Source of the DNA: Bacteroidales bacterium
Lineage (GTDB): Bacteria > Bacteroidota > Bacteroidia > Bacteroidales > P3
Length of the DNA: 64,000 bases
Direction of reading: 5' to 3'
Assembly: GCA_017451385.1 (NCBI GenBank)
Contig: JAFSPS010000008.1
Location: forward strand, 89,750-153,749
The translations under genes and the position numbers were made by a program. Below are positions 463 to 44,666 of the stretch, piece after piece (within the stretch, counting starts at the first letter, position 1; every line of letters begins with the position of its first letter). The notes beneath the pieces are model-generated. The model saw only the letters and a list, made by a program, of their open reading frames with translations, made no database searches and had not been told where the DNA came from.

Positions 463-2955
463 ATGAAGAAAGCTTTATTCAGTTTGTTGATGGCTCTTAT
501 GCTGATACCCTGCGTCTCTATGGCGCAGAAGCCTGCAAAGGCCGGCACTGTCGTGTTTTTCGATACCACGGTATGCGACTCGTTGGTATGGGACCGTAAC
601 GGTTCTGTCTTCACATCCTCCGGTGTCAACCGTGTGGTGATTGGCGACACGACCTATGTAATCAATTTCACTGTCAATAATTCCTATGTGCTGGATGATA
701 CGGTGGAGGCTTCGTGCGACTACAGTTGGCAGGGAACGACCTATGTGAGCGACACCGTCGTCACCAAGACGCTGACCACTATGCATGGATGCGACAGTAC
801 GGTAACCCTCCGGCTGACGCTTACTAAGACCAATATTGATTATTTTGAGGTAACCACTTGTCATCCCTACGTTTTCCGTGGCGAGGAGTATTCGGTGGCC
901 GACATTTATGTCGATAGTGCTCGCAATGAGGAGCTTTTGTGCGACAGCGTCTTCTTGCTCAGCCTGACGATTGAGGACACCATGATGGTTTATCTGCCAT
1001 ACGTAGAGGTGTGCAGCCGCTACACATGGGATATCAACGACAGCGTCTATACCGCTTCCACCATCACTGCTGCCGTGCTGCCAAGAACAGATGAGTCGCA
1101 GTGCGACACGATGTATGCTTTGGCACTCGTCGTCGGAGAGCCTGCATCAGACACCACCACGGTGACGGCCTGCCGTTCATATCAGTGGTCTCTCACCGAC
1201 TCGCTCTATACGGAATCTACTGTTGATGTGTTTGCTTATAAGGCAGAGACTGACGCGCAGTGCGACACAAACTTTGTGCTGGCTCTCACCATTCTCGATA
1301 CGCTGCATGTGGCTACTGAGGACTCGGTGTGCGGTTACTACACATGGAGTGTCAACGACAGCCTCTATACAAGCAACGCTCTCGACACCTTGTTCTCTGC
1401 TGACACTACGCTGGCCAGCTGCGACACCCTTTACACTCTCGACCTCAAGATTGGCAAAAAGGTTGACACCGTCGTTGCCAATGTCTGCGGCAGCTATATC
1501 TACACTCGTCATTTTGCCAATGACAGTACCGCTAAGGACACCGTCTATGAGACGGGTCACTACTTCGACACCATCGTCGCCAGCAATGGCTGCGAGACAG
1601 ACTATGTCTATGACCTCACCATCACTCCAATACGCTACACCGTTGACACTATAGACACCGTGCGTTGCCGTCAGCTTTCGCTCTTCCTGCTCCGCACCAA
1701 CCGCGACAGCCTCATAGTTTTTGATGCTGCTCATCCCAATGGTCAGGTTAGGAGTGCTGTGGAGCGTGTCACTATCGAGCGCAATTCTGTTGTCCGTGCT
1801 CACTATTCTCTCAACAGAGCTCCTTCCTGCATGGACAGCTTGCTGATATTCAATATCACTATCAACAAGACTACCAGCGATGTGGAACAGGTGGGTTCAT
1901 GTGGTGAATATACGTGGGATGCCGCTCGTCGTAAGGTAGTAGATACTACCCATTGGGGCGGACTTGACTCGGTAAGCATCATCAACCGTCATGCCGTTGA
2001 CTTGTATGAGCTGACTGTTGGTGAGGAGACCTATAAGGTCATCGTGAGCGAAGACTCTGCTATGGCAGATGCCGATGTAGAGACCCTTGGTGGTGACAGA
2101 CTTGTGATACTGCCTTCTACCTACTCCGTGGTTGCCTCCACAACACCTGAAGTCTCTACCGACACCGTCAAGTCGGTACTCGGTAACGCTACTCTTACGT
2201 TTGACGAGGAAAACGAGTTCCTCTTCACCGTCAATGCTGATGACACCATTGACAACGACAAGGCTATCTATGTGCTCAACTATATGGATACCGTGCTCAA
2301 CCGCGTGGGTGGCATCGACACCACCGTTGTGGTCTTCGACTCCGTGCACCGTATCTTCAAAAAGAACGGTCGTGACAGCGTCGTCGTTGGTTTGAACGAT
2401 TACGGCTGCGACCTCTACAAGGTTGTCAATGTCACGATACACAACAAGCCTATCGTCTCCATCAGTGGCGACTTCAAGGTTAAGGATAATAATGACGTTG
2501 CTAAGATTTACGCTGTGTTTGACAGTGCCGATAGCAAGACTAAGTACGAATGGACGCTCAATGGCAGCGGCACCATTTCGGACAATAAGAAGGATACCGT
2601 GACCATAACGGGTCTGACTGCAAACAGTGACGTGATGCTGAAGGTTACCGACAAGAATAAGTGCACCGCCGAGAGTTGGATAACTATTCTCTTTGGCGTT
2701 GGCATCAACGAGGCCGACAACCTCAACCTCTCGCTCTATCCTAACCCCACGGCACAGGTCATCAACCTCACGGCTGAGTATGAAATGAACCAGATTGTTA
2801 TCTACAACATGGTTGGTGTTCAGGTGATGAATAAGCAGGTGACTGGCACTGCTCAGTCCCTCGACCTCTCCGCTCTGCCGCAGGGTGCCTACACGCTCCG
2901 CGTGAATATGGCTGACGGCAAGAGTGCTACACGCCGTTTCATTAAGTCGAAATAA
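463..2955 (+). CDS. secreted cysteine-rich repeat protein with C-terminal T9SS (Por) sorting domain
   Basis: 830-aa ORF with ATG start and signal peptide MKKALFSLLMALMLIPCVSMAQ. About 8 modules of 45-60 aa are each bracketed by Cys (C-x2-[YW]-x-W ... C-[DE]-[ST]-x4-L-x-L-[TK]-[IV]). The C-terminus LSLYPNP...IVIYNMVGVQV...LPQGAYTLRV is a typical T9SS CTD. Confidence 0.85.
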   Translation: MKKALFSLLMALMLIPCVSMAQKPAKAGTVVFFDTTVCDSLVWDRNGSVFTSSGVNRVVIGDTTYVINFTVNNSYVLDDTVEASCDYSWQGTTYVSDTVVTKTLTTMHGCDSTVTLRLTLTKTNIDYFEVTTCHPYVFRGEEYSVADIYVDSARNEELLCDSVFLLSLTIEDTMMVYLPYVEVCSRYTWDINDSVYTASTITAAVLPRTDESQCDTMYALALVVGEPASDTTTVTACRSYQWSLTDSLYTESTVDVFAYKAETDAQCDTNFVLALTILDTLHVATEDSVCGYYTWSVNDSLYTSNALDTLFSADTTLASCDTLYTLDLKIGKKVDTVVANVCGSYIYTRHFANDSTAKDTVYETGHYFDTIVASNGCETDYVYDLTITPIRYTVDTIDTVRCRQLSLFLLRTNRDSLIVFDAAHPNGQVRSAVERVTIERNSVVRAHYSLNRAPSCMDSLLIFNITINKTTSDVEQVGSCGEYTWDAARRKVVDTTHWGGLDSVSIINRHAVDLYELTVGEETYKVIVSEDSAMADADVETLGGDRLVILPSTYSVVASTTPEVSTDTVKSVLGNATLTFDEENEFLFTVNADDTIDNDKAIYVLNYMDTVLNRVGGIDTTVVVFDSVHRIFKKNGRDSVVVGLNDYGCDLYKVVNVTIHNKPIVSISGDFKVKDNNDVAKIYAVFDSADSKTKYEWTLNGSGTISDNKKDTVTITGLTANSDVMLKVTDKNKCTAESWITILFGVGINEADNLNLSLYPNPTAQVINLTAEYEMNQIVIYNMVGVQVMNKQVTGTAQSLDLSALPQGAYTLRVNMADGKSATRRFIKSK

Positions 2956-3015: not shown

Positions 3016-3285
3016 AGTGTGATGGGTGAATTGTGATTAGTGAACTGTCAGTGGTGATGAGTGAGGGAGTTCTGTGTTGTTTAATGTGTGATGAGTGATA
3101 ATGGAAGAATGAGTTGTGAAGAATGATAGGAGATGAATGACTGGAGAAGTATGAATAGTGAGTGGTGTTTGGTGCAGTTTGATAGGAGATGAGTGTGTGG
3201 TGATATATAAAGATTGAGGAGTGGTGGTAGATGAGTGGTGGTGGTGTGTGTGAGGATGAGAGGGTGAGTTAGAGAAAGGATATAT
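3016..3285. repeat. cytosine-depleted G/T/A low-complexity tract (GATGAGTG / GGTGGTG / GATAGGAGATGA words)
   Basis: Only 5 C in 270 nt (positions 3045, 3049, 3072, 3141, 3175) and none in 3176-3285. The word GATAGGAGATGA occurs twice. It is non-coding; the antisense ORF 3081..3458 is a low-complexity artefact. Confidence 0.8.
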
Positions 3286-3329
3286 CGTCCGAATGATTCG
3301 AATCCAGTAACGAAAAATGATATCGTCTT

Positions 3330-6098: not shown

Positions 6099-6659
6099 TC
6101 AATTCAGCTTGTCCCACATGAATACTATGCCGAAGTTGTCCTTATAGACCAATGACTCGTCATCGACCATTGTGACCTTGTAGTCGCGTGGCACCACGCC
6201 GCCGAGTTCCATGCGATAGATTTGCGTCAGGTTGTTGCCCTTCATCTCCCAGCGGAACCGTTGTGCCTCCGCTTTGCTCACGTCGTCCTTGGTGTCCCAC
6301 TGCAGTCCTGTGCTGTCGCTGTAATACACCTCGTGTAGTGTGCCGTTCACCCATTCTCCCACCAGCTGTTCGGGGGTGAATATCCTTTCTTTCTTGCCGA
6401 AGATGAAGCTCTCCACGCGGTCGGCGGTGTCGCGCTGAGCCGTAGCCTGCCGTGTTGTTTCGCTCTCGTCGATGGAGGTTGCAGTGTCCTGTGTGTCGTG
6501 GTGTTTGGCATGGATGTCGCTGGGACTGATGTCGTGGATGGTGTCGATGACATCATCATGCGCAGACTTGTCGCCGTTGCTGCCGCAGCCCGATAGTAGC
6601 AGTGCTGCGGCAAGCAGCAAGCGGCAGCAACGCCCTGTCGTTATCTTTCTGTCATCCAT
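6099..6659 (-). CDS. lipoprotein with lipocalin-like C-terminal domain
   Basis: 186 aa with lipobox LLSGC. The C-terminal ~110 aa show a lipocalin-like pattern (LVGEWVNG ... YKVTMVDDESLVY). Its ATG directly abuts the TAG stop of 6660..8144. Confidence 0.7.
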   Translation of the reverse strand: MDDRKITTGRCCRLLLAAALLLSGCGSNGDKSAHDDVIDTIHDISPSDIHAKHHDTQDTATSIDESETTRQATAQRDTADRVESFIFGKKERIFTPEQLVGEWVNGTLHEVYYSDSTGLQWDTKDDVSKAEAQRFRWEMKGNNLTQIYRMELGGVVPRDYKVTMVDDESLVYKDNFGIVFMWDKLN

Positions 6660-8144
6660 CTATCGCCAGTTGTTTATTCTGACAATCCGTGTCTCTGCCG
6701 TTTCGAAACTACGCATTGGCTCGCCGATGCCGTTGCCTATCGCCGTGGGGTCGCAGACCATGAAGTGTCGTCCGTCGATGGTGTAGTAGCTGCCGGGGAG
6801 CTCGGCACCGAAGTCCACCGCCGTAGCCATGTGGCCCGGATAGAGCAGTAGCACTACGTCCAGCCCCACCAGCTCGCGCACCAGTATGCTGAAGAGGATG
6901 GCGCGGTCCTCGCAGTCGCTGTAGGGGTGGAAGAAACACTCGTCGCCATAGAACGAGCGCTCGTAGCCGAACTGCTCGTTGTCGGTCTTATACTCCAGTG
7001 CCGTCTGCACGAAGTCCAGCAGCATCTGCACCTGCTTCTTCTTGCTGCGTCCCTCCAGCTGCTGGCGCAGGGCGGAGTAGAGTTGCTGCTTCACTCCGTC
7101 GCTTAGCGAGGCTTCGACCAGGTAGTTGTAGGTCATCGTGTGGGGGTAGTTGTCGAAGAAGCGCATCAGGTTGCTGTTGGTCGCCACGGTGGCTCTCATG
7201 TTGGCGAAGCTCTTAGCCTCGAAGGTGTGTCGCTCGCCCTCGTTCATGGCGAGGCGTGGCATCTGCGCTATGAGCAACGAGGCAGGCTGTGTCTTGGGGA
7301 AAGCATTTTGGAACACCGAGATAGTCTCCCATTTGCTCTTCTCTATCACATAGAAACGGCGCTCGTTTTTTACTACATACGCGTATGAATACACGTTCAC
7401 GTCGAATGATGCCAGCAGCACGAGGTGCCCGTTGGTCTTGCCTATGCGGATATCTAAGCCAGACTGCGAGAGCAGCCATGCCTGTAGCAGCACCGCCTCG
7501 TTACATTCCTTCCCCATAGCGGCTACGGCGGCTTGATGAGTCAGCTCGATATATCCCCAGTCGCACAGCATCATATCGTTGCGCAGCGTCAGGCAGTCGC
7601 GTAGCAGTGGGTCGTAGCGTCCGTCCGACAGCTGTTGCCATGCCTGCGATGCCGCTTGCTCGTTCACGGCGTTCAGCGCAATCTTTTTCGCCATATCGGT
7701 ATGCAGACGGCATTGGCTGCCGTAGAACGTCATGCCCGTTGTGGGAGCGTCGGGAGTCGGCGGCTCTATCTCGTCTTTCACATCGTTGGGGTCTATCTCG
7801 GGTGGCGGCAGCGGCTGTGGCATTGGCACCACTTCGGGCGTAGGCAGCGGCACCGGCTGTGCCGGCGGCAGCTTGTCGGGCACCGCCACCGGCTGCCGCA
7901 CGGGCTTGGGCGGCTTAGGAGGTTCCTCGCCTTTAATGACGCGCATCTCCTCCCAAGCCTGCTCCATGAAGCGCGCATACTCCTCGTTGGCCTTGCGGCG
8001 GAACTCGCTGTACTCCTGCCGTGCCTTATTGACAAAGCCGTTATACTCTGCCCGAGCCCGCCGCTTAAAAGCCTCATAGTCCTCCTGCGCCGTGAGGGGA
8101 AGAGTGGATAATAGTACGAGGAGTAATGGAACGTAGTATTTCAT
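6660..8144 (-). CDS. secreted protein with Pro-rich linker and transglutaminase-like (Cys-His-Asp) C-terminal core
   Basis: 494 aa with a signal peptide, a charged helical segment and the linker PPKPPKPVRQPVAVPDKLPPAQPVPLPTPEVVPMPQPLPPPE. The arrangement SDCEDRAILF ... YPGHMATAV ... VCDPT resembles a transglutaminase-like peptidase core. The function call is low confidence. Confidence 0.7.
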   Translation of the reverse strand: MKYYVPLLLVLLSTLPLTAQEDYEAFKRRARAEYNGFVNKARQEYSEFRRKANEEYARFMEQAWEEMRVIKGEEPPKPPKPVRQPVAVPDKLPPAQPVPLPTPEVVPMPQPLPPPEIDPNDVKDEIEPPTPDAPTTGMTFYGSQCRLHTDMAKKIALNAVNEQAASQAWQQLSDGRYDPLLRDCLTLRNDMMLCDWGYIELTHQAAVAAMGKECNEAVLLQAWLLSQSGLDIRIGKTNGHLVLLASFDVNVYSYAYVVKNERRFYVIEKSKWETISVFQNAFPKTQPASLLIAQMPRLAMNEGERHTFEAKSFANMRATVATNSNLMRFFDNYPHTMTYNYLVEASLSDGVKQQLYSALRQQLEGRSKKKQVQMLLDFVQTALEYKTDNEQFGYERSFYGDECFFHPYSDCEDRAILFSILVRELVGLDVVLLLYPGHMATAVDFGAELPGSYYTIDGRHFMVCDPTAIGNGIGEPMRSFETAETRIVRINNWR

Positions 8145-8192
8145 TTGTAGTTTAATATGATCTATCTATGGTAGAGTGTCTGTTGTAGAGGT

Positions 8193-8948
8193 TTATTCTG
8201 GTCTGACAGGAAGAATATATGCTGTTCCTGTATTGATTTTTTCTTTACTTAAAGATATGGCACTAGTCCATGGAAACACGCATTTGAATGGATAAACCAT
8301 TCCCTCTTCCTCCAATTCTTCATATGCCCAAATAGGAATATCTTTTAACGATTTACGTGGTTCATAAGAATCACTTTGCATTTTATCGTTTAATTTATCT
8401 AACATTTCTGTAGTTGGCATTATCCAACCAGTATAACCTGCATATGTAAATGACGAAACATAATCCCATGTGTCATTAAAGGAATAAGCTTTGGAAGAAA
8501 GAGGCCCCACCCGATACAAACGACCACCAAAACTAAAAGTGTAAAGACTATTGTATTTGCTCTCATCGACTTTTTCAGAACCATAATCCACTTCAATTGT
8601 TCCATAGTCATAGCTTTTCTCTCCAGCACCTCTCAAATTTTTATAAAATAAATTCTCGCTATTATATTCTATCTTAATTAGTGCTATTTCATCTTTAGGA
8701 ATTTTCTCGTATTCAACAGTTATGGAGAAATCTCCGTTAAGATTTGTTTTTGTTTTATATAAGGAAGTATTATAATATCCGTATAGTATTTCTACTGTCG
8801 CGTTTGTCAGAGGTGTTTTTTTATTTTTATCTACTACATGACCTGTATATGTGGTAACAGTGGAGTATCCTAAATCATTGAAATCTTTCAGACAGCTTGT
8901 AAATAGGAAACTGACAGCTATTATAAAAAGAATAGATATATGTTTCAT
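8193..8948 (-). CDS. lipoprotein, CarboxypepD_reg-like N-domain plus DUF1566-like C-domain (tentative)
   Basis: 251 aa with lipobox FLFTSC, and markedly AT-rich relative to flanks. Patterns: YTGHVVDKNKKTPLTNATVEILY and GYTGWIMPTTEMLDKL ... ILPVRPE. Confidence 0.65.
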   Translation of the reverse strand: MKHISILFIIAVSFLFTSCLKDFNDLGYSTVTTYTGHVVDKNKKTPLTNATVEILYGYYNTSLYKTKTNLNGDFSITVEYEKIPKDEIALIKIEYNSENLFYKNLRGAGEKSYDYGTIEVDYGSEKVDESKYNSLYTFSFGGRLYRVGPLSSKAYSFNDTWDYVSSFTYAGYTGWIMPTTEMLDKLNDKMQSDSYEPRKSLKDIPIWAYEELEEEGMVYPFKCVFPWTSAISLSKEKINTGTAYILPVRPE

Positions 8949-8952
8949 TGTA

Positions 8953-9777
8953 TTAGAAATTAAATGTTAAACCAATGCCAGCTCCCATAGATTCATTTGT
9001 AGGAATAAGAGCTGTTTCTATCCGAATTTTATCTTGTTTGTATCGTGGTGTAATTGTTGCTGCTCGAATAATATTATATACATAGAATGTTGCTGCCGCT
9101 GCCGTTAGACCAATATTAAGTTTGCGATACATTTCGTAATCGGATTTTAGTACCATAAGGCCTCCTGGCATATCTTCGCTTTTCATTTCATCTAATAGTT
9201 CTTTGCCTTTTATGTAGGTTACAACGGCTCCACCAGCAAGTGTCGCTTCGCCCAATAGTGTGAAGATGCCTGTGCCGTAGCGGCGTTTGCCCATCTGGCC
9301 AAGTCCAGGGATAATGGCAGACTTAAGAGCGGCAAGACCATCACTGTAGGTTCTGGTATCGTGGCAGGCATTGAATTCGTCGAAGTTGGCAGGCATATTG
9401 CCACTTTTTGCCACTTGGCATAACACCCAAACTATATATCCTCCTCCACGAGAACTTTCCATATAGTCGCACACTTTGTTGATGGGTATGTTGTATTCCA
9501 CGGCAACACGCCCCCAGTCATCGCCATTCTGTAAAGCAGCATTCACTTCATCCCATCTTACCTGAGTCCCTATACGCATCATTGTGGTCTGAAAGACACG
9601 GGCTATAGCGCTGTTGAGTGCAGCTTGATATGTTAATCCTGTGGCTCGTTCAACAACATACATATAGGATGAATTGCCTGCTTTAGGCATTTTCGTCACC
9701 CAGCCGGGCCGTTCTTCAGCATGTATAGTAAGTGTTATGGTAAACACTAACAATGCTATACTTAGTATTTGTTTCAT
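8953..9777 (-). CDS. exported LPP20-like domain protein with membrane segment and aromatic C-terminus
   Basis: 274 aa with a signal peptide. LPP20-like pattern RPGWVTKMPK..YMYVVERATG..AALNSAIARV..GGGYIVWVLCQVAKS, then an IPGLGQ segment, ending ...GLTFNF. It starts 4 nt before the next gene. Confidence 0.65.
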   Translation of the reverse strand: MKQILSIALLVFTITLTIHAEERPGWVTKMPKAGNSSYMYVVERATGLTYQAALNSAIARVFQTTMMRIGTQVRWDEVNAALQNGDDWGRVAVEYNIPINKVCDYMESSRGGGYIVWVLCQVAKSGNMPANFDEFNACHDTRTYSDGLAALKSAIIPGLGQMGKRRYGTGIFTLLGEATLAGGAVVTYIKGKELLDEMKSEDMPGGLMVLKSDYEMYRKLNIGLTAAAATFYVYNIIRAATITPRYKQDKIRIETALIPTNESMGAGIGLTFNF

Positions 9778-9815
9778 AGTAATTATTTGTGTTTCTCAAA
9801 ATGTCTGAATTATTG

Positions 9816-10403
9816 TTATTTGTTATTTCCATATTCCTTCATATACTGTTCAGCCCATTTGCGGAATTGGTCACGATTGAAAAGTGTTTCAAGCTTTTGG
9901 TCGTCGCTGAGGGCTGATGCTGCCTTGGATGCTAATTCTTTCTTTGAAATGTGTATGGCAATGTAAGATTGATAGGTGCCAGCAGGTGTCTGGTAAAGCT
10001 CCTCACATACTTGTGTGGCATCATTAAGCATGCGTTCAATTACGTTCGTCACTTCGCGTTCAACAACACCCTGCACATCGTTTTGACGGGCATCGCCTGA
10101 CATGGTGCGACTATAGTCTGTGGATAATCCTTTTGCTAATCCACCTATTTTCCCGTTTATTATGCTCTTGGCTGCATTCAAAGCTGCCATACGAGCATTT
10201 TGAGCATTCATGTTTTCCCCAATACCCATGCCAGCAAAGTAATCGTCAGAATCCATGCCTTCTTGTGCGCAAGGCAAAACAACTTTGACATTGCCATGCT
10301 GAACTGGAGTTTGAGTTGGTTGAGTTACTACGTTTTTGTTGCTGGAGCATGCAACAAAACTTATGGCTGCTATGGCCATGACAATGATAATGTTTTTTTT
10401 CAT
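9816..10403 (-). CDS. LPP20-like lipoprotein
   Basis: 195 aa with lipobox FVACSS. Pattern: DDYFAGMGIGENMNAQNARMAALNAAKSIINGKI ... GTYQSYIAIHISKKEL. Confidence 0.65.
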   Translation of the reverse strand: MKKNIIIVMAIAAISFVACSSNKNVVTQPTQTPVQHGNVKVVLPCAQEGMDSDDYFAGMGIGENMNAQNARMAALNAAKSIINGKIGGLAKGLSTDYSRTMSGDARQNDVQGVVEREVTNVIERMLNDATQVCEELYQTPAGTYQSYIAIHISKKELASKAASALSDDQKLETLFNRDQFRKWAEQYMKEYGNNK

Positions 10404-14359: not shown

Positions 14360-15118
14360 TTATCTTTTCTTGCAGACCACTTGGTCGTTGTATTTGAGGT
14401 TGACCACCTTGTAGCGGTCCCATCCTACGCGAGGGAGTGCTTGGTCGTAGAGTGCCATGAGCCGTTCTAATTTGTCGTCGAGGTCATCGGTATTGCCTAC
14501 ATTGACAACATGTGTTCCTGCCTTAGGAGTGAGGATGAAGTCGCCATTCTGGTCGCGGTATATTTGGTCGAAGAGGCTGCCGTAGCCGTTGTCGTCGATG
14601 TAGTGAGCGAGAATCCATAGGTGGCTCATGTCGTTGAGTTGCAGAAGTGTGTCGTTCTGCCAGAGGCTGAAGTCTGTGGAGATGTTTATGAGCGTGTCGT
14701 TGGTGTGCAGGTGTCCGCTGGCTATTGTTACATGTGCCATGCCTTCGTTGGATAGCGGCATGTAGCGGCCCTGACGGTCTATGTAGTACTGGCGTCCGTT
14801 CTGATAGACGTGGAGCAGCGGATGACGCTGGTCGGCCTTGACCACCACATTGCCCAAAATGCTGACGTAGGCTTGGCAGTTCTCGATGTAGGGGGAGCGC
14901 ATGACGCACTGCTTGATGTTGCGCGTGTCAATCTCTTTCACTTTGAGCGACATCATTGTCGGCATGGTGGTGTTGATGGCTCTCTCAATGGTGGCGGCGG
15001 AGACGAGGGTGTCGCACCCGTTGTAACGCACTCTCACCTGCAGCTCGCGCACCACGGCGTTGCTCCTCACGATGTTGGCTCCAACAACAAGGATGATAAT
15101 AGCCAAGGCTATCAGCAA
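14360..15118 (-). CDS. ftsQ: cell division protein FtsQ (TTG start as drawn; true start uncertain)
   Basis: 252 aa with an N-terminal TM segment (LIALAIIILVVGA) followed by a POTRA-like region, in the syntenic position before ftsA. There is no ATG/GTG between the upstream in-frame stop (15176-78) and the TTG at 15118. Confidence 0.8.
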   Translation of the reverse strand: MLIALAIIILVVGANIVRSNAVVRELQVRVRYNGCDTLVSAATIERAINTTMPTMMSLKVKEIDTRNIKQCVMRSPYIENCQAYVSILGNVVVKADQRHPLLHVYQNGRQYYIDRQGRYMPLSNEGMAHVTIASGHLHTNDTLINISTDFSLWQNDTLLQLNDMSHLWILAHYIDDNGYGSLFDQIYRDQNGDFILTPKAGTHVVNVGNTDDLDDKLERLMALYDQALPRVGWDRYKVVNLKYNDQVVCKKR

Positions 15119-15151
15119 ATTGCGTACTATGTTCTTCTTAAGTTTGATGTC

Positions 15152-15459
15152 TGAGTAGTTATTAGGATTGTTGGATTATGAGATTGTTAAGATTAGTAAG
15201 ATTGTTAAGATTAGTAAGATTTTGAGATTTTAAGATTAGTTAGATTTTAGGATTATGAGATTTTAAGATTTTTAGATTTTAGGATTAGTTAGATTTTAGG
15301 ATTATGAGATTTTAAGATTAGTAAGATTATGAGATTTTAAGATTAGTAAGATTTTAGGATTAGTAAGATTATGAGATTAGTAAGATTATGAGATTTTAAG
15401 ATTTTGAGATTATTGAGATTATGAGATTAGTATGAGTTTGAGATTATGAGATTTGATAT
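15152..15459. repeat. cytosine-free tandem array of GATT-phased 8/9-mers (~37 units)
   Basis: No C on the + strand for 308 nt. Units are GATTTTAA, GATTTTGA, GATTTTAG, GATTATGA (8-mers) and GATTAGTAA, GATTGTTAA, GATTAGTTA (9-mers), arranged head to tail. It lies between murC and ftsQ. Confidence 0.95.
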
Positions 15460-15610
15460 CTGTTTGTTTATTCTATTTTTTTTTGTGCTGCCCCTACGGG
15501 TTATTTGTTGAAGTCTTATTATTCTTCCTATCTGTTCTTAGCTCTTATTGTCTTGTCATCTTCTTATTCTAATCCATTCTAATCATCTGATTCTTCTTAT
15601 CTGTTATTAT

Positions 15611-16978
15611 CTATTTCGAGTTTAATAGTTTTTCTTCTATTGTTGGCACCAGTCGGTCGATGTCGCCAGCGCCGAGAGTCATCAGCACGTCGCAGTCTAT
15701 CTCTGTCACATGTTGTATGAGTTGCTCTTTGGAGTAGAGACGCCTGTGAGAGGAGGTGATGTTGTCTAATATCAGTAGCGAAGATACGCCGGCTATGGGT
15801 TCTTCGCGTGCGGGGTATATGTCGAGCAGCGTCACATCGTCGAGGGCAGACAAAGAGGTAGCAAACTCGCGGTAGAAATCGGCGGTGCGGCTGTATAGGT
15901 GTGGCTGAAAGATGCCGGCGATGCGCTTGTTGGGATAGAGCTGTCGCGCGGAGTCTATGGCGGCAGCCAGTTCGCGAGGGTGGTGAGCGTAGTCATCAAT
16001 ATAGATGATGTGGCTGTTGCACACGCGGTAGTCGAAGCGGCGGCGTATGCCACTAAAGTGTGCCATGCCGCGGCGGATGGCATCGGCATCGGCGCCGCAG
16101 GCTATCGCTACGGCTATGGCGGCGACGGCGTTCTCAATGTTGTAGGGTGCCGACTGAAGGTATATGTCGTTTATGGTAAGATGGTTGTCGGTATAGTCAA
16201 AGCGTATTCCATGTTGCTCGATGCGTATGTTGCTGGCATGATGTGTGGCGTTGCTTGCTTTGCCGCTATAGCAGGAGGCATGGCCGTTGGAGATGCGCTG
16301 TAGTACGAACGATTGGTGTGCTGCGAGGAGCGATGCGTTGCTCTGTATGAATATATGCCCGTCTTCGTCCGTCTGACTGGCAAACTGGTCGAAGGCCTCC
16401 AGCAGGTTGGCGTGGGTGCCATAGATGTCGAGATGGTCGGCATCGGTGGAGGTGATGACGGAGAGGTAGGGGTGCAGATGGAGGAAGGAGCGGTCATACT
16501 CGTCGGCTTCAACGACAACATATTTACTGCCGGTCTGACATAGCATATTGCTGTCAAGATTCTTGTGTATGCCGCCGAGGAAGGCATCCACCGCTATGCC
16601 AGCCTCCTGAAGCAGGGTGACAATCATGCCCGAGGTGGTGGTCTTGCCGTGGCTGCCGGCTACGGCTATGCAGCGTTTGCCGCGCGTCAGCTCGCCCAGC
16701 ATCTGTGAACGTTTCACAATCTTCACTCCGCGTGCCTCCATGTGTCTGTAAACCTCTGTGGTGCGTGGCACGGCAGGGGTGTAGATGCAGAGGTCTATGT
16801 CGGTGGGTATTTTGGCGGGGTTGTCGTCATAATGCACTACGATGCCCTCATGCTCCAGCTGGTGCGTGAGAGGGCTCTCGGCATGGTCGTAGCCATACAC
16901 GTTGTCGCCACGCTGTTTGAAGTAGCGTGCCAGCGCGCTCATGCCTATCCCTCCTATGCCGATAAAATAGTAGTTCAT
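15611..16978 (-). CDS. murC: UDP-N-acetylmuramate--L-alanine ligase
   Basis: 455 aa with IGIGGIGMSALA and AVAGSHGKTTT, in dcw synteny. Confidence 0.95.
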   Translation of the reverse strand: MNYYFIGIGGIGMSALARYFKQRGDNVYGYDHAESPLTHQLEHEGIVVHYDDNPAKIPTDIDLCIYTPAVPRTTEVYRHMEARGVKIVKRSQMLGELTRGKRCIAVAGSHGKTTTSGMIVTLLQEAGIAVDAFLGGIHKNLDSNMLCQTGSKYVVVEADEYDRSFLHLHPYLSVITSTDADHLDIYGTHANLLEAFDQFASQTDEDGHIFIQSNASLLAAHQSFVLQRISNGHASCYSGKASNATHHASNIRIEQHGIRFDYTDNHLTINDIYLQSAPYNIENAVAAIAVAIACGADADAIRRGMAHFSGIRRRFDYRVCNSHIIYIDDYAHHPRELAAAIDSARQLYPNKRIAGIFQPHLYSRTADFYREFATSLSALDDVTLLDIYPAREEPIAGVSSLLILDNITSSHRRLYSKEQLIQHVTEIDCDVLMTLGAGDIDRLVPTIEEKLLNSK

Positions 16979-17067
16979 CGTTCCTCTCGCTTTGCTCTTG
17001 TTTTTTTCAATCTGTGTTTTTTAGAAGCACAATTCACACAACAATAGTGCATTGTGTGCAAAGGTAG

Positions 17068-19391: not shown

Positions 19392-19931
19392 TTATAATTC
19401 GTTGACTTCGAGGCGGAAATGGTTGCCGTTCTCCTGTATGGAGCGGCCGTTGTCGCTGGCTGGGGAATAGATAATGGTGGCAGTCTCCAGCGAGTTGTAG
19501 AAAGCCTTGCTGACGGCTTCGCCGAGGCTGTTGACATCAACTATGGTAGGGATGATGCCGTCGAAGCTACGATGCAGATTCTCGTTGTTGCTGCCTACGC
19601 AGTAGAGCACGCGAACTTTGCGTAGCGCGGTGGCTTTCAGTCGGCTGTAGTCAGTGGTATTGTCGTTGCCGTTGGCAATCCAGATAAGGCTGCCCGTCAT
19701 GCTCTCAAGAGTGTACCATGTGGCATTGACGTTGTTGGACGAAGCGTCGTTGATGAATGTTTTGCCGTGTATGCGTGCCACGTATTCCTTGCGATAGCGC
19801 ATCTCCTCGAAGCGTGCGAAGCAGGAACGCAGTCCGGCGTTGCGCATGTGTTTCAGGCGTTTGGTGTTGATTTCAGCCAGGGTGTTGGGGACAGTGGTGC
19901 GACCTTGCTGTGCTAATGTTTCGATAGTCAT
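19392..19931 (-). CDS. MurD C-terminal-domain-only protein with degenerate ligand-binding motifs (truncated murD homologue)
   Basis: 179 aa with ATG start, occupying the murD slot between mraY and ftsW. By eye it aligns to the last ~175 aa of MurD: YRKEYVARIHGKTFINDASSNNVNATWYTLESM, WIANGNDNTTDY, IYSPASDNGRSIQENGNHF. There is no room for the N-terminal and ATP-binding domains because only 74 nt separate it from the mraY stop. Confidence 0.75.
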   Translation of the reverse strand: MTIETLAQQGRTTVPNTLAEINTKRLKHMRNAGLRSCFARFEEMRYRKEYVARIHGKTFINDASSNNVNATWYTLESMTGSLIWIANGNDNTTDYSRLKATALRKVRVLYCVGSNNENLHRSFDGIIPTIVDVNSLGEAVSKAFYNSLETATIIYSPASDNGRSIQENGNHFRLEVNEL

Positions 19932-31545: not shown

Positions 31546-34500
31546 ATGAAACGAATATTATTATTTCTCGTCATACTGTTTGCCGGCGTAGTTGCTAAGG
31601 CGCAGATGGATGTGTATGACGATTTTGAGCAGGCGACGTTGCAATGGGAAGTTGGTGATGATGATGAGAATGGTGGCAATTGGTCTGTTTTCCAGTTTGA
31701 TGAAGCTGGTATAGCGATGAGTGGTACGGGTGTTGCCGTATCTATCTTAATGCGTTCAGAGACTGGTTATGAGCATACAATGTGGTATGGTACGCATACT
31801 ATGGAAGATGCCAATGCGACGGCGCGACTGTCGTTCAGTATGGCGGCCGTGTCGATGGAGGACGATGAGACGATAGTGTGCGAGGCCAACGCATCGGTGC
31901 AGTTGTATATGGACGATGAGTATGTGGGCGACATAATGTCAATGTCTATTGACCCGATGGACGGATGGTGGTATTTCAGTTACACCTTTGCCGAGATAGC
32001 GCAGGACTTGGGCATAGACATGTCTGGGCAGCACGACTACCGCATAGTGTTCAAAAATGCCACGCCCAACGGTGGCGACTGTGCATTGCTGGTAGATGAC
32101 TATTTCTTCTCGGAGGGTGGCGAATACTCTATTATCCTCAATTCCAACAACGAGGAAAATATGGAGAGCTACCAGATGACGACCAACGAAGGCATCATCA
32201 TGGTGCCTACGGGCGATGAGGTGCCTTTCACCGCGCCGGAAGGCTATTCGTTAGCTTACTGGCTCTATTCGGACGGTGTGAACACCTATAGCGTCATACC
32301 GGGTGACGAGGAAACGATAGGCGAGGATATGACATGGTATGCCATGTGGGGACGGAACTACATGGTGGAATACTATGCCAACGATGATTACAACTATTTT
32401 GAAGAGAGTGCGGTGCAATATGCAGGGCACATTGTGCAGGAGAACATTTTCGAGAGGGAGCACTATACTTTTGTAGGCTGGAACACCGAACTTGACGGTA
32501 GCGGCACCATGTATCAGGTAGGTGACACGATAGATTTGCCCAGCGATGCTGCGACAGACACTATCAACCTCTATGCTCAATGGGAGATGGAACAATATGA
32601 CATCACTATTTCTTTTGACGGTGGTGGTGCTGACGGCGAGATGAGCGATGTGCAGCAAAGTGCTGGTGAGCCGTACAGTGTGCCGGAGTGCGGATATACC
32701 TATGACGGTTATTTGTTTTTGGGCTGGAATACCGAGTATAGCGGTGATGGCGATAGTTACCAGCCTGGGGATATGGCAACATTTGACGAGGATGTGACGC
32801 TCTATGCCCAATGGGCAGAGATTGTCACGATAACCATATCGTTTGACGGCAACGGAGCCGACGAGATAAATATGGATGATGTCTCATTTGAGGTGGGCAA
32901 TAACTACACCGTGCCACAGTTTTCAGGCACGTATGAGGGACATACCTTCATGGGCTGGAATACAGACCCTGATGGCGACGGCACGAGCTATCAGCCAGGT
33001 GAGACTGTAATGTTTACAGAGGATGTGGTGCTCTATGCCCAGTGGCCTGCCATTGTTACCATCATGTTTGACGGCAATGGTGCCGACGAGTTCGAGATGG
33101 AAGATGTGCAGATAGAGTCGATAGCGACATACACGATACCGCAGTTCGGCGGCATATACGATGGACACACATTCATGGGGTGGTGTGAGGATATGTTTGG
33201 CGAGGGCGAGATGTATCAGCCTGGCCAGCAAGTTACGTTCAGCGAGGATGTTACGCTCTATGCTATATGGCCTGCTATGGTTACCATCACGTTTGATGGC
33301 AATGGAGCTGACGAGATAGAGATGGATGACGTAGAAATAGAGACGATAGCGACATTCACGATACCCCCGTTCAGCGGTGCATACGAGGGACACACATTCA
33401 TGGGATGGTGTGAGGATGTGTATGGCGAGGGTGAGATATACCAGCCGGGCCAGCGTGTTACGTTCAGTGAGGATGTTACGCTCTATGCAGTATGGCCTCC
33501 GTATGTTACCATCACGTTCTACGGCAATGGTGCCGACGTGATTTCTATGGACGATGTAACGTATGAAGCCATTGAGCCATATACCATTCCGGCGTTTGTG
33601 GGTTCGTATGAGGGTCATGACTTCCTCGGATGGAATACAGAAAGCACCGGCGACGGTACTACCTATCAGCCTGGGGAGAGCGTTATGTTTAGTGAGAATA
33701 TGGAGCTGTATGCTATCTGGTCAACGACCATCACTATCACGTTTGATGGCAATGGTGCAAGTGGTTTTGAGATGGCAGATGTAGAGCATAATACTGCCGA
33801 GCCATATACGCTTCCGGCGCTGCAAGGTACGTATCAAGGACGAGTATTTATCGGATGGAGCACCGACCCCGATGGTCTTGGCGACAGATATGAGGCTGGC
33901 GAGACGGTTGCACTCACACATGATGTGACATTCTATGCTATATGGTACGAGGAGGCGGTGGCCATAATCCATTTTGACCTCGGCGGTGCACCATACACTA
34001 TGGCCGATACGGTGCATGATGTCAGCAATCCCTACCGGATACCGGCAATGGAATATGAGTACCCGTTCCACATCTTTGCTGGTTGGTTCTGCGAGAACGA
34101 CGAAATGACTTATCAGACGGGCAATTTCGCAACGTTTGGAGTGGGCGATGTGTACCTGAGAGCACTGTGGACAGAGGTCCCGACGGTGCGTATCACCTAC
34201 CATGCTAATCATAGCGATGTGCAAGGCACGATGGAAAACGCTGTTGCGGAGCAATATCATGACTTTGTGTTGCCTCGTGGCGGCTACTATGTTGATGGTT
34301 ATCGCTTTGTGGGATGGTGTACGACTGCAGACGGCAGTGGCGACCTCTTATCGGCAGGAACCACGATACAAGTGCAGGCAGATGACCTTGAATTCTACGC
34401 CATTTGGGAGACTGTGGCTGACCCGTTCACCATCATCTTTGATGCTAATGGTGCGGAGGGTTTCATGCCGCATGTGACAATAGAGAGTGGCGAGGAATAC

Positions 34501-39698: not shown

Positions 39699-39704
39699 TG
39701 AGTC

Positions 39705-39954
39705 GAAGATGGGGATGTTAAGATGTTAGGATGTTAAGATGTTAAGATTTTGAGATTTTAAGATGTTAGGATGTTAAGATTTTAAGATGTTAGGATGTTA
39801 GGATGTTAGGATGTTAAGATGTTAGGATGTTAAGATGTTAGGATGTTAAGATGTTAGGATTTTAAGATTTTGAGATTTTAAGATTTTAAGATGTTGTGAT
39901 TTTAAGATTTTGAGATGTTGTGATTTTAAGATTTTGAGATATTAAGATTTATTT
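39705..39954. repeat. cytosine-free tandem array: 30 in-phase 8-mers, consensus GATKTTAR
   Basis: No C on the + strand for 250 nt. Positions 39714-39953 parse into exactly 30 contiguous 8-nt units (GATGTTAA, GATGTTAG, GATTTTAA, GATTTTGA, GATGTTGT, GATATTAA). GATTTTAA and GATTTTGA are shared with the array at 15152-15459. Confidence 0.95.
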
Positions 39955-40006
39955 CTCCCAATCTGAAAATCCATGCTATTTCCCTAAAAATCTGAATATC
40001 TTATCT

Positions 40007-42398: not shown

Positions 42399-44666
42399 TT
42401 AACGCTTCACAATCTTGCGTACGGCAGTGCCTTCGGCGGCGTTGATGCGGAGCATATATACGCCGTTGTTGATACCGTTGAGGTTGATGGTGTTGTCCTC
42501 GGAAGTCATGATGATGCGGCCGGTGAGGTCGAGGAGTTCGAGGCTGCTGATGGTGACACCATTGACGCGGACGAAGCTCTGAGCGGGGTTGGGGTAGATG
42601 CTGATGTTGGCGTTGTTGATGTCGTTGATAGCTGTCGGGCCGGGTTCGGTAATTTTCTCCCAGATGGCGTAGAATGTCATGTCGCGAGTGATGTTGACCT
42701 GAGAGGTTATAACATTACCGTCGGGGGTTTGAGACCAACCGATGAAGCGATAGCCGTCGCGGGTGAAGAGGCAGTTTTGTGAGGTGGGAGAGAACCAGTT
42801 GTCGCCGTTGGCGATGTAGAAATATATGGGGCCCATAGTGCCTTGACCGCCGTTGGCATCAAATCTTACTGTCCAAACGTTGGGCGTTTCGGGCTCGTTG
42901 GATTCCTCCCAGATGGCGTAGAGTGTCATGTTGCCTTGTACGGTGATTTCGCCGGAGAGGGGATAGCTGTTGGGGGATACTGCCCATCCAACGAAGCGAT
43001 AGCCTGTTCTGGTGAAAGTGCAGGAGATGTTGTGTACGTTGAGGTAGGGGTCGTCTTGGCTGACGGTGATGGGGGCCATAGAGCCTTGACCGCCATTAGC
43101 GTTGAATGAGATGGTGAACACCTCGGCTTGAGGATTTTGGTCTTCCACCCAGATGGCGTAGAGCGTCATGTCGCCCTGTACGGTGATTTCGCCGGAGAGT
43201 GGGTAGCTGTTGGGAGTGGTAGCCCAGCCGGCGAACTGATAGCCCGCTCTGGTGAAAGTGCAGGAGATGTTGTGTACGTTGAGGTAGGGGTCGTCTTGGC
43301 TGACGGTGATGGGGGCCATAGAGCCTTGACCGCCATTAGCGTTGAATGAGATGGTGAACACCTCGGCTTGAGGATTCTGGTCTTCCACCCAGATGGCGTA
43401 GAGCGTCATGTCGCCCTGTACAGTGATTTCGCCGGAGAGTGGGTAGCTGTTGGGAGTGGTAGCCCAGCCGGCGAACTGATAGCCCGCTCTGGTGAAGGTG
43501 CAGGAGATGTTGTGTACGTTGAGGTAGGGGTCGTCTTGGCTGATGGTGATGGGGGCCATAGTGCCCTGGCCACCATTGGCGTTGAAGGAGATGGTGAACA
43601 CTTCTTCTTCTGCTGTGGCATCTTCCCAGATAGCGTAGAGTGTGATGCCTTCGCTTAATTCATTTTCCTGGTCAATAGAAATAACTTCTCCAGGATTTAC
43701 AGTAATACCTATGCCATTGACATCGGTATTCCATGATTTGAACTGTTTGCCAGCGGGAGGGTTGTAGGTGCAAGCGAGAGTGACGTGGGGCTGGAAGTTG
43801 TAATAGGCTATGGAAGGAGCGATGGTGCCAGAGCCACCATTGGCGACATAAGTGATGGTGTAAGGTCTGAGCTCTGAGGTGGTATGACAATATTGTGCGA
43901 AGAAGGCGTCGTGGTCTAATTGGTAATAGCCTCTCTCGGAGATGCTGATATTATTGTATTCGAGGTTCCCGTTGGATGAGACATATTCATCCCAGCTCAC
44001 AAAGGTTTTGCCGGAGGGTACAGAAAATCTGGTTGCAGTGGGGAAGGTGAGATATCCGCCTGGCTCGGTAACCAGGTCGAAAGAGTCTTCATTTTCATCT
44101 TCTGGTATGAAAGTGACGAAATAGGCGTCGGAACGTTTGCGAATAGTTACATCATCAAGAATGAGGTAGCCGCCGGAGGAAAGCTCTTTGCTCACCCAGC
44201 CGAAACAAACTGTTGCGCTGGAGGTTAAAGCAGAGAGTTCTTGCAGTTGATTGAAATTGACAGTCATAGCTCTCCAACCATCGGAAGAAGAGATAGCGTT
44301 TAGGGTGTGTAACGTCGGATTACCATTGACAACGACCATCAGTTGCATGGTGGCAGATACTGAGGCTCCCTGCGTTTCGGGTACTACGATTTGGTAAAAT
44401 CTTAAGGAGCCAGAGGTGATGTCCTCTGGAGCGATTTGGATTGTGGGAGAGTAGATGGCGACGTTAGCGACTGTGGTGTAGGCGCAGAAGTCGTCTTCGT
44501 ACAAAACTTCGTCAATGTCCCAGTTGACATTGTTCTGTGGTGCATCTGTGGTCCATCCTGTAACGTCACTGAAATCACATCTGTACGCATCCTCAGTGAT
44601 GTCGACTTGTGCAAACATTGACCAGCTGAAAAGCAGAGCCAATGCAAATGATAATAATTTTTTCAT
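42399..44666 (-). CDS. T9SS-sorted surface protein with Listeria-Bacteroides repeats (paralogue A)
   Basis: 755 aa with signal MKKLLSFALALLFSWSMFAQ, an N-terminal beta-rich module and 5-6 LBR repeats including three near-identical 80-aa copies. The CTD is ISIYPNPAQSFVRV...NNGVYMLRINAAEGTAVRKIVKR. Confidence 0.9.
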   Translation of the reverse strand: MKKLLSFALALLFSWSMFAQVDITEDAYRCDFSDVTGWTTDAPQNNVNWDIDEVLYEDDFCAYTTVANVAIYSPTIQIAPEDITSGSLRFYQIVVPETQGASVSATMQLMVVVNGNPTLHTLNAISSSDGWRAMTVNFNQLQELSALTSSATVCFGWVSKELSSGGYLILDDVTIRKRSDAYFVTFIPEDENEDSFDLVTEPGGYLTFPTATRFSVPSGKTFVSWDEYVSSNGNLEYNNISISERGYYQLDHDAFFAQYCHTTSELRPYTITYVANGGSGTIAPSIAYYNFQPHVTLACTYNPPAGKQFKSWNTDVNGIGITVNPGEVISIDQENELSEGITLYAIWEDATAEEEVFTISFNANGGQGTMAPITISQDDPYLNVHNISCTFTRAGYQFAGWATTPNSYPLSGEITVQGDMTLYAIWVEDQNPQAEVFTISFNANGGQGSMAPITVSQDDPYLNVHNISCTFTRAGYQFAGWATTPNSYPLSGEITVQGDMTLYAIWVEDQNPQAEVFTISFNANGGQGSMAPITVSQDDPYLNVHNISCTFTRTGYRFVGWAVSPNSYPLSGEITVQGNMTLYAIWEESNEPETPNVWTVRFDANGGQGTMGPIYFYIANGDNWFSPTSQNCLFTRDGYRFIGWSQTPDGNVITSQVNITRDMTFYAIWEKITEPGPTAINDINNANISIYPNPAQSFVRVNGVTISSLELLDLTGRIIMTSEDNTINLNGINNGVYMLRINAAEGTAVRKIVKR
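42890..43610. repeat. three tandem 240-bp intragenic repeats (near-identical)
   Basis: Lines 43081-43140 and 43321-43380 differ by 1 nt, giving a period of exactly 240 bp. Copies ~43130-43370 and ~43370-43610 differ at roughly 10 positions. Copy ~42890-43130 shares an identical ~120-nt half. Confidence 0.9.

Follow-up and report, generated by a model that had tools for sequence, protein, structure and literature searches.

A strain-variable, cytosine-free tandem array between murC and ftsQ in an uncultured rumen Bacteroidales species

Introduction

The division and cell wall (dcw) operon is essential and normally tight. In the DNA analysed here (64,000 nt of contig JAFSPS010000008.1, positions 89,750 to 153,749, from the Bacteroidales bacterium assembly GCA_017451385.1; hereafter the window), murC and ftsQ of this operon are separated by a long series of short tandem repeats, the main array, which contains no C on the plus strand. 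A description made without database searches (the original prediction) had drawn attention to it, and proposed that it acts in front of ftsQ as an unstructured spacer, a ribosome standby site or a protein-binding platform, or else that it is a hypervariable satellite. The locus raises the question of what kind of element this is, and of how such an operon tolerates about 460 nt of untranslated RNA before ftsQ, of which the array part is predicted to be free of structure.

The main array is a polymorphic minisatellite

The base count of the main array (15152-15459) was T133 A105 G70 C0 in 308 nt of the plus strand, as the original prediction had it, and this was the longest C-free run within the window. 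With C at a frequency of 0.17, as in the remaining intergenic DNA, zero C in 308 independent positions would have a chance of about 5e-26, a figure that assumes an independence which the positions of an array, being repeated, do not have.

GATT was present 34 times, at spacings of 8 nt (21 times), 9 nt (11 times) and 17 nt (once), which gave about 34–35 units. The types of the GATT-phased 8- and 9-mers had been recognized correctly in the original prediction, but their number had been put too high, at about 37. The chief units were GATTATGA, GATTAGTAA, GATTTTAA and GATTTTAG. The GAT(T) core was intact in 34 of the approximately 35 units, and the tail was variable. Tandem Repeats Finder, which had been suggested as a check, recovered the array with period 17 (15.4 copies, score 228) and also with period 33.

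Stop codons interrupted each of the six frames (10–17 per frame), as had been claimed, and the longest open stretch was 27 codons. The units, of 8–9 nt, abut directly, without the 24–48-nt repeats and unique spacers of similar length that define a CRISPR.

On the murC side the array was followed by a non-repeat segment and then by an arm of opposite polarity (Table 1). The composition of this arm (15514-15610) on the plus strand was T53 C21 A17 G6, i.e., T/C-rich and G-poor, so that the switch of polarity noted in the original prediction was real. The arm did not pair significantly with the main array. A long hairpin between the two was rejected, because a search of 15100-15650 for inverted repeats gave none of 10 nt or longer and the RNA of the whole spacer folded worse than 99 of 100 shuffles.

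Among strains, the order and number of units varied at the ftsQ-proximal end of the main array, and the flank was identical. Variant alleles were found at L255, L257/L260, L259, L261 and L263. L257 and L260, which came from different runs, carried the same allele, including its novel junction k-mers. The main array thus has all the characters of a minisatellite, or variable number tandem repeat (VNTR): short head-to-tail units, polymorphism among strains with conserved flanks, and lack of coding capacity. It is a lineage-specific and rapidly evolving one, located between genes.

The entire 492-nt spacer between murC and ftsQ was identical in six assemblies, made as metaSPAdes-type scaffolds or with MEGAHIT. 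This made an assembly artefact, a danger that the original prediction had named, unlikely. All six are short-read assemblies, which leaves the true lengths of the alleles uncertain, and many short-read contigs broke off inside the main array.

The murC–ftsQ junction was also compared in relatives, as the original prediction had advised. In the nearest one (L252, FtsQ 74% identical) the end of murC ran directly into ftsQ (...TTA TAA GCC ATC AAA CTG AAA AAG AAC...), with no array. The main array was likewise absent from the relatives at about 54–55% FtsQ identity (L253 and L254). In 80 Bacteroidota dcw loci (1.55 Mb), the murC–ftsQ gap was about 20–190 nt, typically 30–45, and no run of more than 110 nt lacked any one base. 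No such tracts were found in about 40 kb from two other relatives. From this absence in relatives, the array and some 150 nt of flank without repeats (about 460 nt in all) appear to be a recent insertion specific to the species.

The spacer of L253 had a peculiarity of its own. Its 69 nt (836-904; FtsQ there is 55% identical) were C-free in the gene sense and contained repeats, namely TTGAA-type heptamers and AATTAAAAA.

Table 1. Coordinates of the array loci and of the associated genes and signals in the window
Feature	Position	Strand	Description
ftsQ	14360..15148	-	262 aa from ATC, 252 aa from TTG at 15118 (gene callers); assigned from position, size, transmembrane helix and homology
ATC, inferred non-canonical ftsQ start	15146..15148	-	Followed by IKLKKNIVRN and the transmembrane helix
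Main array	15152..15459	.	34 GATT-phased 8/9-nt units; no C on plus, no G in the sense of murC and ftsQ (minus)
Central non-repeat segment of the insertion	15460..15513	-	Gene sense ...CAACAAATAACCCGTAGGGGCAGCACAAAAAAAAATAGAATAAACAAACAG; identical in all strains spanning the segment
Opposite-polarity arm, directly 3' of the murC stop	15514..15610	-	Gene sense GATTAGAATGGATTAGAATAAGAAGATGA...; purine-rich and C-poor in the gene sense
murC	15611..16978	-	455 aa; Mur_ligase domains
Bacteroidetes-type -7 promoter motif	17059..17066	-	TACCTTTG; 81 nt upstream of murC
Sister array (array 3)	39705..39954	.	29 octamers, GATGTTAA, GATGTTAG, GATTTTAA, GATTTTGA...; 250 nt, C-free on plus
Opposite-polarity arm of sister array	39955..40006	.	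AATCTGAAAATCC...CTAAAAATCTGAATATC; G-poor on plus (C14 T18 A17 G3)
C-poor G/T/A tract (array 1)	3018..3289	.	Degenerate 14/28-nt repeats, GTGATGAGTGAA-like; 7 C in 272 nt

Related tracts in the window and elsewhere

The search for further arrays of the same type, which had been proposed, gave two more tracts in the window, the C-free array 39705-39954 (array 3) and the C-poor tract 3018-3289 (array 1). Neither of these, nor the putative non-canonical start of ftsQ described below, had been noticed in the original prediction.

Array 3 filled the spacer between the convergent genes of a DUF4159 protein and a peptidase S46, and had a 19-mer, GATTTTGAGATTTTAAGAT, in common with the main array. The GAT(T) core was preserved in all of its units. 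The two true arrays had the same layout: reading along the plus strand, a C-free tract was followed by a short G-poor arm of opposite polarity with AATC-type motifs. Array 3 was also polymorphic. Its window allele consists of 29 units; that of L272 has 27 and that of L274 has 20, in reshuffled order, both being shorter by exact multiples of 8 nt. These strain differences at both arrays, with identical flanks, directly support the hypervariable satellite that the original prediction had offered as a fallback. In relatives, the closest DUF4159 homologue that was found had a different synteny, and the comparison at this site was uninformative.

Array 1 lay behind the intrinsic terminator of a gene with a type IX secretion system (T9SS) tail (463..2955) and upstream of apbE, and was identical in both assemblies compared. 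No further array was present in the 9.5 kb upstream of the window.

A mobile origin, in particular as a MITE (miniature inverted-repeat transposable element), was considered, since the original prediction had listed this as an outcome that would overturn it. Shared flanks and terminal inverted repeats were looked for, and neither was found: a second copy of the flanks was absent from the window and from all compared loci, those of arrays 1–3 were mutually unrelated, and the insertion had no terminal inverted repeats. A MITE similar to BrickBuilt of Porphyromonas gingivalis was therefore unsupported. A 7-nt direct repeat, TAATAAC, was located close to either end of the insertion. It may be a target-site duplication or, being AT-rich, a chance match; the empty site of L252 is much diverged. 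Origin from a phage or other mobile element was rejected after scans of viral collections, which gave only single, chance-like matches, L119 excepted.

L119 (IMG/VR contig 3300026519_000173, classed as viral, GC 0.48) had at 516-609 a 94-nt G-free array of AATCTTNN octamers, which resembled the arrays of the window read in the gene sense.

A scan of metagenomes with a period-8 GATK pattern was swamped by GATT/GATG tetranucleotide microsatellites, but it did bring up a small number of true octamer arrays without C in other bacteria. Three unrelated contigs (L152, 8358-8720; L215, 3424-3640; L176, 84-215) carried C-free GATTGAGA-type octamer arrays just past a gene stop, followed by an array of reverse-complement type (AATCACTC, TCTCCAAT), i.e., the same layout with a switch of polarity. 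The two arms of L152 were truly complementary. Several of the matches appear to come from cyanobacteria, such as L143, with GCGATCGC in its flank.

C is kept off the plus strand

The nine alleles were resolved into 20 unit types, and a minimum spanning network connected these by 19 substitution steps: six A/G, six G/T, six A/T, one C/G, and no C/T or A/C. C was therefore involved in 1 of the 19 steps and G in 13. A single C-involving step had a binomial P of about 0.005 under equal targets, and the comparison of 1 C-involving with 13 G-involving steps gave P 0.001–0.008.

All three tracts were depleted of C on the plus strand, which is the strand of positive GC skew throughout the window. The skew was about 0.20 for the replication-type component at third codon positions and about 0.15 between genes. 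Mutation bias alone was rejected as the reason for the zero C, since skews of this size are too weak for 0 C in 308 nt or for 1 against 13 steps. The maintenance of a three-base alphabet across alleles and loci suggests that C is kept off this strand either by selection or by a much stronger local strand bias of mutation.

The skew over 1-64000 was strong and uniformly positive, 0.127 overall. At third positions it could be decomposed into the replication-type component and a codon-usage component, also of about 0.20. The C-rich strand carries most of the genes, including the dcw operon.

ftsQ probably starts at a conserved ATC

MurC of the window was identical to MBQ7279485.1, a protein from a Bacteroidales metagenome-assembled genome, and the best species-representative genomes reached only 55% MurC identity. 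The contigs with this locus stem from ruminant gut metagenomes. Downstream of ftsQ, on the minus strand, were the genes for FtsA and FtsZ. The product of ftsQ matched no Pfam or NCBIfam model. The gap from murC to the TTG that is called mechanically as the start of ftsQ was 492 nt, in agreement with the original estimate of about 490 nt, and 462 nt to the ATC considered here. The remaining dcw junctions ranged from a 4-nt overlap (ftsW–murG) up to 111 nt, again as estimated.

The reading frame of ftsQ was open upstream of the TTG as far as 15175, and encoded ...D-I-K-L-K-K-N-I-V-R-N before the transmembrane helix. An ATC followed by nearly the same peptide was found in both L252 (IKLKKNIIRN, 2065-2100) and L254 (IKLKRNIVRN, 9898-9940), and the differences after the ATC across the three species were mostly synonymous or conservative. 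None of the three (window, L252, L254) had a canonical start codon before the transmembrane helix of ftsQ. The position of the ATC was taken by TTG, the ftsQ start, in L253 and by ATG in more distant relatives (MKRPV..., MRPTLRN...).

The TTG at 15118 was rejected as the start, because it is not conserved (CTG in L252) and would drop the positively charged cytoplasmic tail. Most likely, ftsQ starts at the conserved ATC, 15148-15146. With this start, gene callers would begin FtsQ too late and truncate it in this clade, with the loss of its membrane anchor.

The ATC followed the murC stop by 3 nt in L252 and 7 nt in L254, and was 462 nt away in the species of the window. The short distance in the relatives suggests translational coupling, in which the ftsQ ATC was ancestrally tied to the murC stop by termination and reinitiation.

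The array is probably transcribed as a structure-free spacer

The -7 motif of Bacteroidetes promoters, TAnnTTTG, was enriched between genes (20 of 51 matches in the window), and at least 10 of these 20 sat 26–140 nt upstream of a gene start. In this window it thus serves well as a marker of promoters. On the gene strand, no further TAnnTTTG was found from the TACCTTTG motif upstream of murC to the end of ftsZ. The gene-sense spacer contained no TTTG at all, and a canonical Bacteroidetes promoter for ftsQ inside the array was rejected on this ground. A scan for sigma-70-type promoters gave matches at chance level only. A G+C-rich hairpin with a U tract, expected of an intrinsic terminator, was not found in 15119-15610 on either strand.

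With no promoter motif past the one upstream of murC and no hairpin terminator in the spacer, the simplest reading is that murC, ftsQ, ftsA and ftsZ are co-transcribed through the array. This gives indirect support to the operon-internal location assumed in the original prediction.

In the gene sense the array RNA was free of G, as had been pointed out, and had a predicted minimum free energy of 0.0 kcal/mol; stretches of 308 nt taken at random from that strand gave -80.8 +/- 16.9. The RNA of the opposite sense, on the other hand, was predicted to fold with -55.9 kcal/mol. Start codons were distributed in the same way. ATG, GTG and TTG were all missing from the gene-sense array, and the 345 nt before the ftsQ ATC were devoid of canonical start codons; the opposite sense carried ATG and TTG triplets, as in the units GATTATGA and GATTGTTAA. 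ATC and ATA were present in the gene-sense array 35 and 12 times, respectively. Rfam gave no match at gathering thresholds in the whole window, and none at E<=1 in 15050-15700.

No hairpin terminator was found in 39699-40006, the spacer that harbours array 3, on either strand.

A tolerated spacer and its alternatives

How could the operon accommodate the array? The explanation that we favour, at roughly an even chance, is that a slippage-driven minisatellite is tolerated in the operon mRNA as an inert, possibly initiation-friendly, untranslated spacer. The array, with its flank of about 150 nt, would have been inserted or expanded between the murC stop and the ftsQ ATC in this species, and would grow, shrink and reshuffle by replication slippage or unequal recombination among its units. 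Most likely, it is transcribed as an untranslated intercistronic spacer of a murC-ftsQ-ftsA-ftsZ mRNA. It would be tolerated there because its gene sense uses only A, C and U, from which neither base pairs, nor AUG, GUG or UUG, nor a TTTG-dependent Bacteroidetes promoter, nor a hairpin terminator can be made. The opposite sense has ATG and TTG triplets and a predicted fold, and the orientation of the array at ftsQ fits this tolerance. Initiation in Bacteroidetes does not use the Shine–Dalgarno (SD) sequence; it is tuned by low structure, favoured by upstream adenines, and avoids nearby AUGs (PMC6847099). An unstructured leader would suit initiation of this kind and may aid ftsQ, which would now be initiated de novo at a weak ATC.

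Several points weigh against this explanation. Co-transcription was deduced from a motif scan, which a non-consensus promoter could escape. The array may not be inert if the Rho of this organism behaves like that of E. coli, which prefers RNA of just this sort: 308 nt, untranslated, with C and without G. Tolerance does not explain why the tracts at 39705-39954 and 3018-3289 are C-free or C-poor on the same strand. The 35 AUC triplets of the array would be decoy near-cognate starts, of the same codon as the proposed ftsQ start. The avoidance of C could reflect strand-biased mutation and not selection, and the alleles are known at the uncertain lengths of short-read assemblies. In addition, an array of the same type lies between convergent genes, where a role as a 5' leader is impossible, and the properties of the type have therefore not evolved specifically for ftsQ.

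The main rival to a tolerated spacer is an array that loads Rho in the manner of Rho utilization (rut) sites. We regard it as unlikely. Rho would load on the AAUC of the minus sense, once every 8–9 nt, and terminate or attenuate transcription; together with the opposite-polarity arm, each locus would be a bidirectional Rho-dependent insulator, which at murC–ftsQ would lower ftsQAZ transcription relative to murC and at 39705-39954 would terminate two convergent genes that have no hairpin terminators. The minus sense, with 70 C, no G and 55 YC dimers in 308 nt and AAUC every 8–9 nt, unstructured in prediction and closed by stops in all frames, does have the C-rich, G-poor, unstructured and untranslated character of a rut sequence. 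Within the unit, conservation coincides with the AUC/UC core, and the rest is variable. As a C-free part is succeeded by a G-poor one, transcripts entering from either side find in the distal half a stretch that is poor in G and contains C, and array 3 is the only feature between its two genes, with no terminator-like hairpin there. E. coli Rho subunits cover 5 nt each, with linkers of 4–5 nt, bind YC and prefer A and C, but the Rho of Bacteroidota has a large N-terminal insertion (PMC12360218), and rut descriptors are pervasive in random sequence and poor predictors (PMC13613805). An efficient terminator would moreover starve the cell of essential and abundant division proteins, as ftsQ, ftsA and ftsZ have no TAnnTTTG of their own; nor would a tuned attenuator be expected to be missing in sister species and to change freely in length. 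Somewhat less probable again is a translation-initiation platform, i.e., a standby site or bS1-binding pad that raises de novo initiation at the weak ftsQ ATC and compensates for the lost coupling to murC, like the SD-independent A/U-rich enhancers and the omega leader of tobacco mosaic virus (TMV). The displacement of the ATC from 3–7 nt to 462 nt past the murC stop speaks for such a role. The array ends 15 nt before the ATC, and the leader, predicted to be fully unstructured and having no canonical start codon, is single-stranded and A/U-rich as such a platform should be (minimum free energy 0.0, no G). The SD-independent initiation of Bacteroidetes, with its preference for low structure and upstream adenines and the depletion of AUG near starts (PMC6847099), agrees with this, and E. 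coli S1 recognizes TMV omega and U-rich leaders, which are translated without SD (PMC13577412). But the same repeat family is found at 39705-39954 with no gene start following, the length and unit order of the array vary among strains, and sister species do without it. The 55%-identity relative L253 has before ftsQ a short repeat-containing spacer that is C-free, not G-free. The base at -3 of the ATC is G and not the favoured A, and the 35 upstream AUC triplets could act as decoys. A more general proposal, which we hold to be doubtful, is that arrays with the GAT(T) core are not junk but are under selection as RNA elements of three letters, and would be modular loading arrays that offer one AAUC per protomer of a machine that binds single-stranded RNA. 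The machine could be Rho, with the array as a tunable, copy-number-variable bidirectional insulator, or bS1/30S, with the array as a standby platform that rescues a decoupled, ATC-started ftsQ.

Roles outside the RNA are less probable. That the phased GATT cores bind a nucleoid-associated or regulatory protein as DNA, or mark a strand for the direction of replication, seems improbable to us. The invariance of the GAT(T) core beside a variable tail (in 34 of 35 main-array units and in all array-3 units) would be explained by it, and so would the confinement of the C-free or C-poor side of all three tracts to the strand of positive GC skew, whatever the orientation of the genes. Three tracts of one polarity have, however, a chance probability of 1/4, and each array is followed by an arm of the opposite polarity. 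No candidate binding protein was identified. Free change in copy number and absence from sister species speak against a fixed architecture. The period, 8.35 bp, does not match the helical repeat, and the sites would spiral round the helix. Least probable of all, and very much so, is that the array is an assembly artefact or a MITE-like mobile element with an internal minisatellite. The many short-read contigs that end within the array, the TAATAAC repeat near both insertion ends, and the precedent of BrickBuilt, a MITE with an internal minisatellite in P. gingivalis (PMC4596501), point in this direction. They are outweighed by the identity of the 492-nt spacer in six assemblies, by alleles that differ by whole units and have the same novel junction k-mers in two independent runs (L257, L260), and by the lack of a second flank copy, of terminal inverted repeats and of any relation among the flanks of the three arrays.

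Comparison with known systems

The array resembles the intergenic VNTRs of bacteria, e.g., the loci used in multiple-locus VNTR analysis of pathogens, in its short head-to-tail units, intergenic position, strain variation and conserved flanks, and in being present in one species and absent from the orthologous site of relatives. It differs from these in the mixture of 8- and 9-nt units with an invariant GAT(T) core, in the strict three-base alphabet across alleles and loci, and in its location inside the essential dcw operon, just before ftsQ. Taken at face value, it adds one more family to the VNTRs of bacteria, and is to be seen as an oddity rather than as a system of a new type. What is unusual is the combination of the three-letter alphabet, the mixed units with a fixed core, the polarity-switch arms and the dcw site before an ftsQ of apparently non-canonical initiation.

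A further comparison is provided by the heptamers known as short tandemly repeated repetitive (STRR) sequences of cyanobacteria, which are arrays of short units scattered over the intergenic regions of one lineage and of obscure function. They belong to another phylum and differ from the main array in unit length and sequence; the likeness is one of appearance only.

Our literature search found no description of such arrays in Bacteroidales, BrickBuilt being the closest (PMC4596501). Like the present arrays, BrickBuilt has a Bacteroidales host, consists of tandem repeats without spacers, is always intergenic, occurs in several copies per genome and is restricted to a species. Its units, on the other hand, are of 23 nt, its leader and tail subunits are conserved, with small inverted-repeat ends, and promoter activity has been measured for it (PMC4596501), whereas the arrays here have 8/9-nt units, unshared flanks, no terminal inverted repeats, and a gene strand without TTTG-containing promoter motifs.

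Artificial Rho terminators made of polypyrimidine repeats may also be compared with the array. Natural rut sites share with it an untranslated, unstructured RNA with more C than G and a regular occurrence of YC, and its period of 8–9 nt is near the register of 9–10 nt per Rho subunit (PMC12360218). Natural sites are about 60–90 nt, loosely defined and not tandem repeats; the likeness of the array to them comes from its sequence alone, and its operon context argues against efficient termination.

The omega leader of TMV is 68 nt long, stands next to the AUG and is essentially G-free, with ACAAUUAC octamer repeats. It and the other S1-bound, SD-independent leaders (A/U-rich enhancers, standby sites; PMC13577412) resemble the array in being single-stranded, G-free or G-poor, with short direct repeats ahead of a start codon, in a system that makes no use of SD. 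The array differs from omega in that it is 308 nt long, polymorphic and located before a non-canonical ATC, and in that its sister arrays precede no gene.

The array is of use for telling apart strains of this uncultured Bacteroidales species of the rumen, and it is a reminder that assemblies made from short reads break at loci of this type. Should it modulate the loading of Rho or SD-independent initiation, it would be a cis element of natural origin, tunable by copy number, in a phylum for which the signals of initiation and termination have been little defined so far. If these are selected loading arrays, changes in copy number would be a natural rheostat for the expression of division genes in an uncultured Bacteroidales lineage.

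Other features of the window

The place of murD in the dcw cluster (19392-19931, minus strand) was occupied by an open reading frame of only 179 aa. Its product matched positions 270-435 of the 441 positions of the NCBIfam murD model, with an E value of 4e-21, below the cutoff, and the frame was separated from mraY by only 74 nt. The closest relatives (L009-L017) had the short form as well, as did a few others. At this site, the majority of Bacteroidota loci are about 790 nt longer, which corresponds to a full-length MurD.

Downstream of ftsZ, in 6099-10403 of the minus strand, five consecutive genes (195, 274, 251, 494 and 186 aa) gave no Pfam match above threshold. They were conserved in strains of the species and replaced in strain L257.

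Two tandem repeats were found within coding sequence, one of 225 nt in 2.7 copies (32926-33542) and one of 240 nt in 2.9 copies (42903-43601). Both lie inside genes for large Flg_new / Por_Secre_tail proteins (T9SS cargo). The protein with the second repeat varied by strain, being 755 or 675 aa long.

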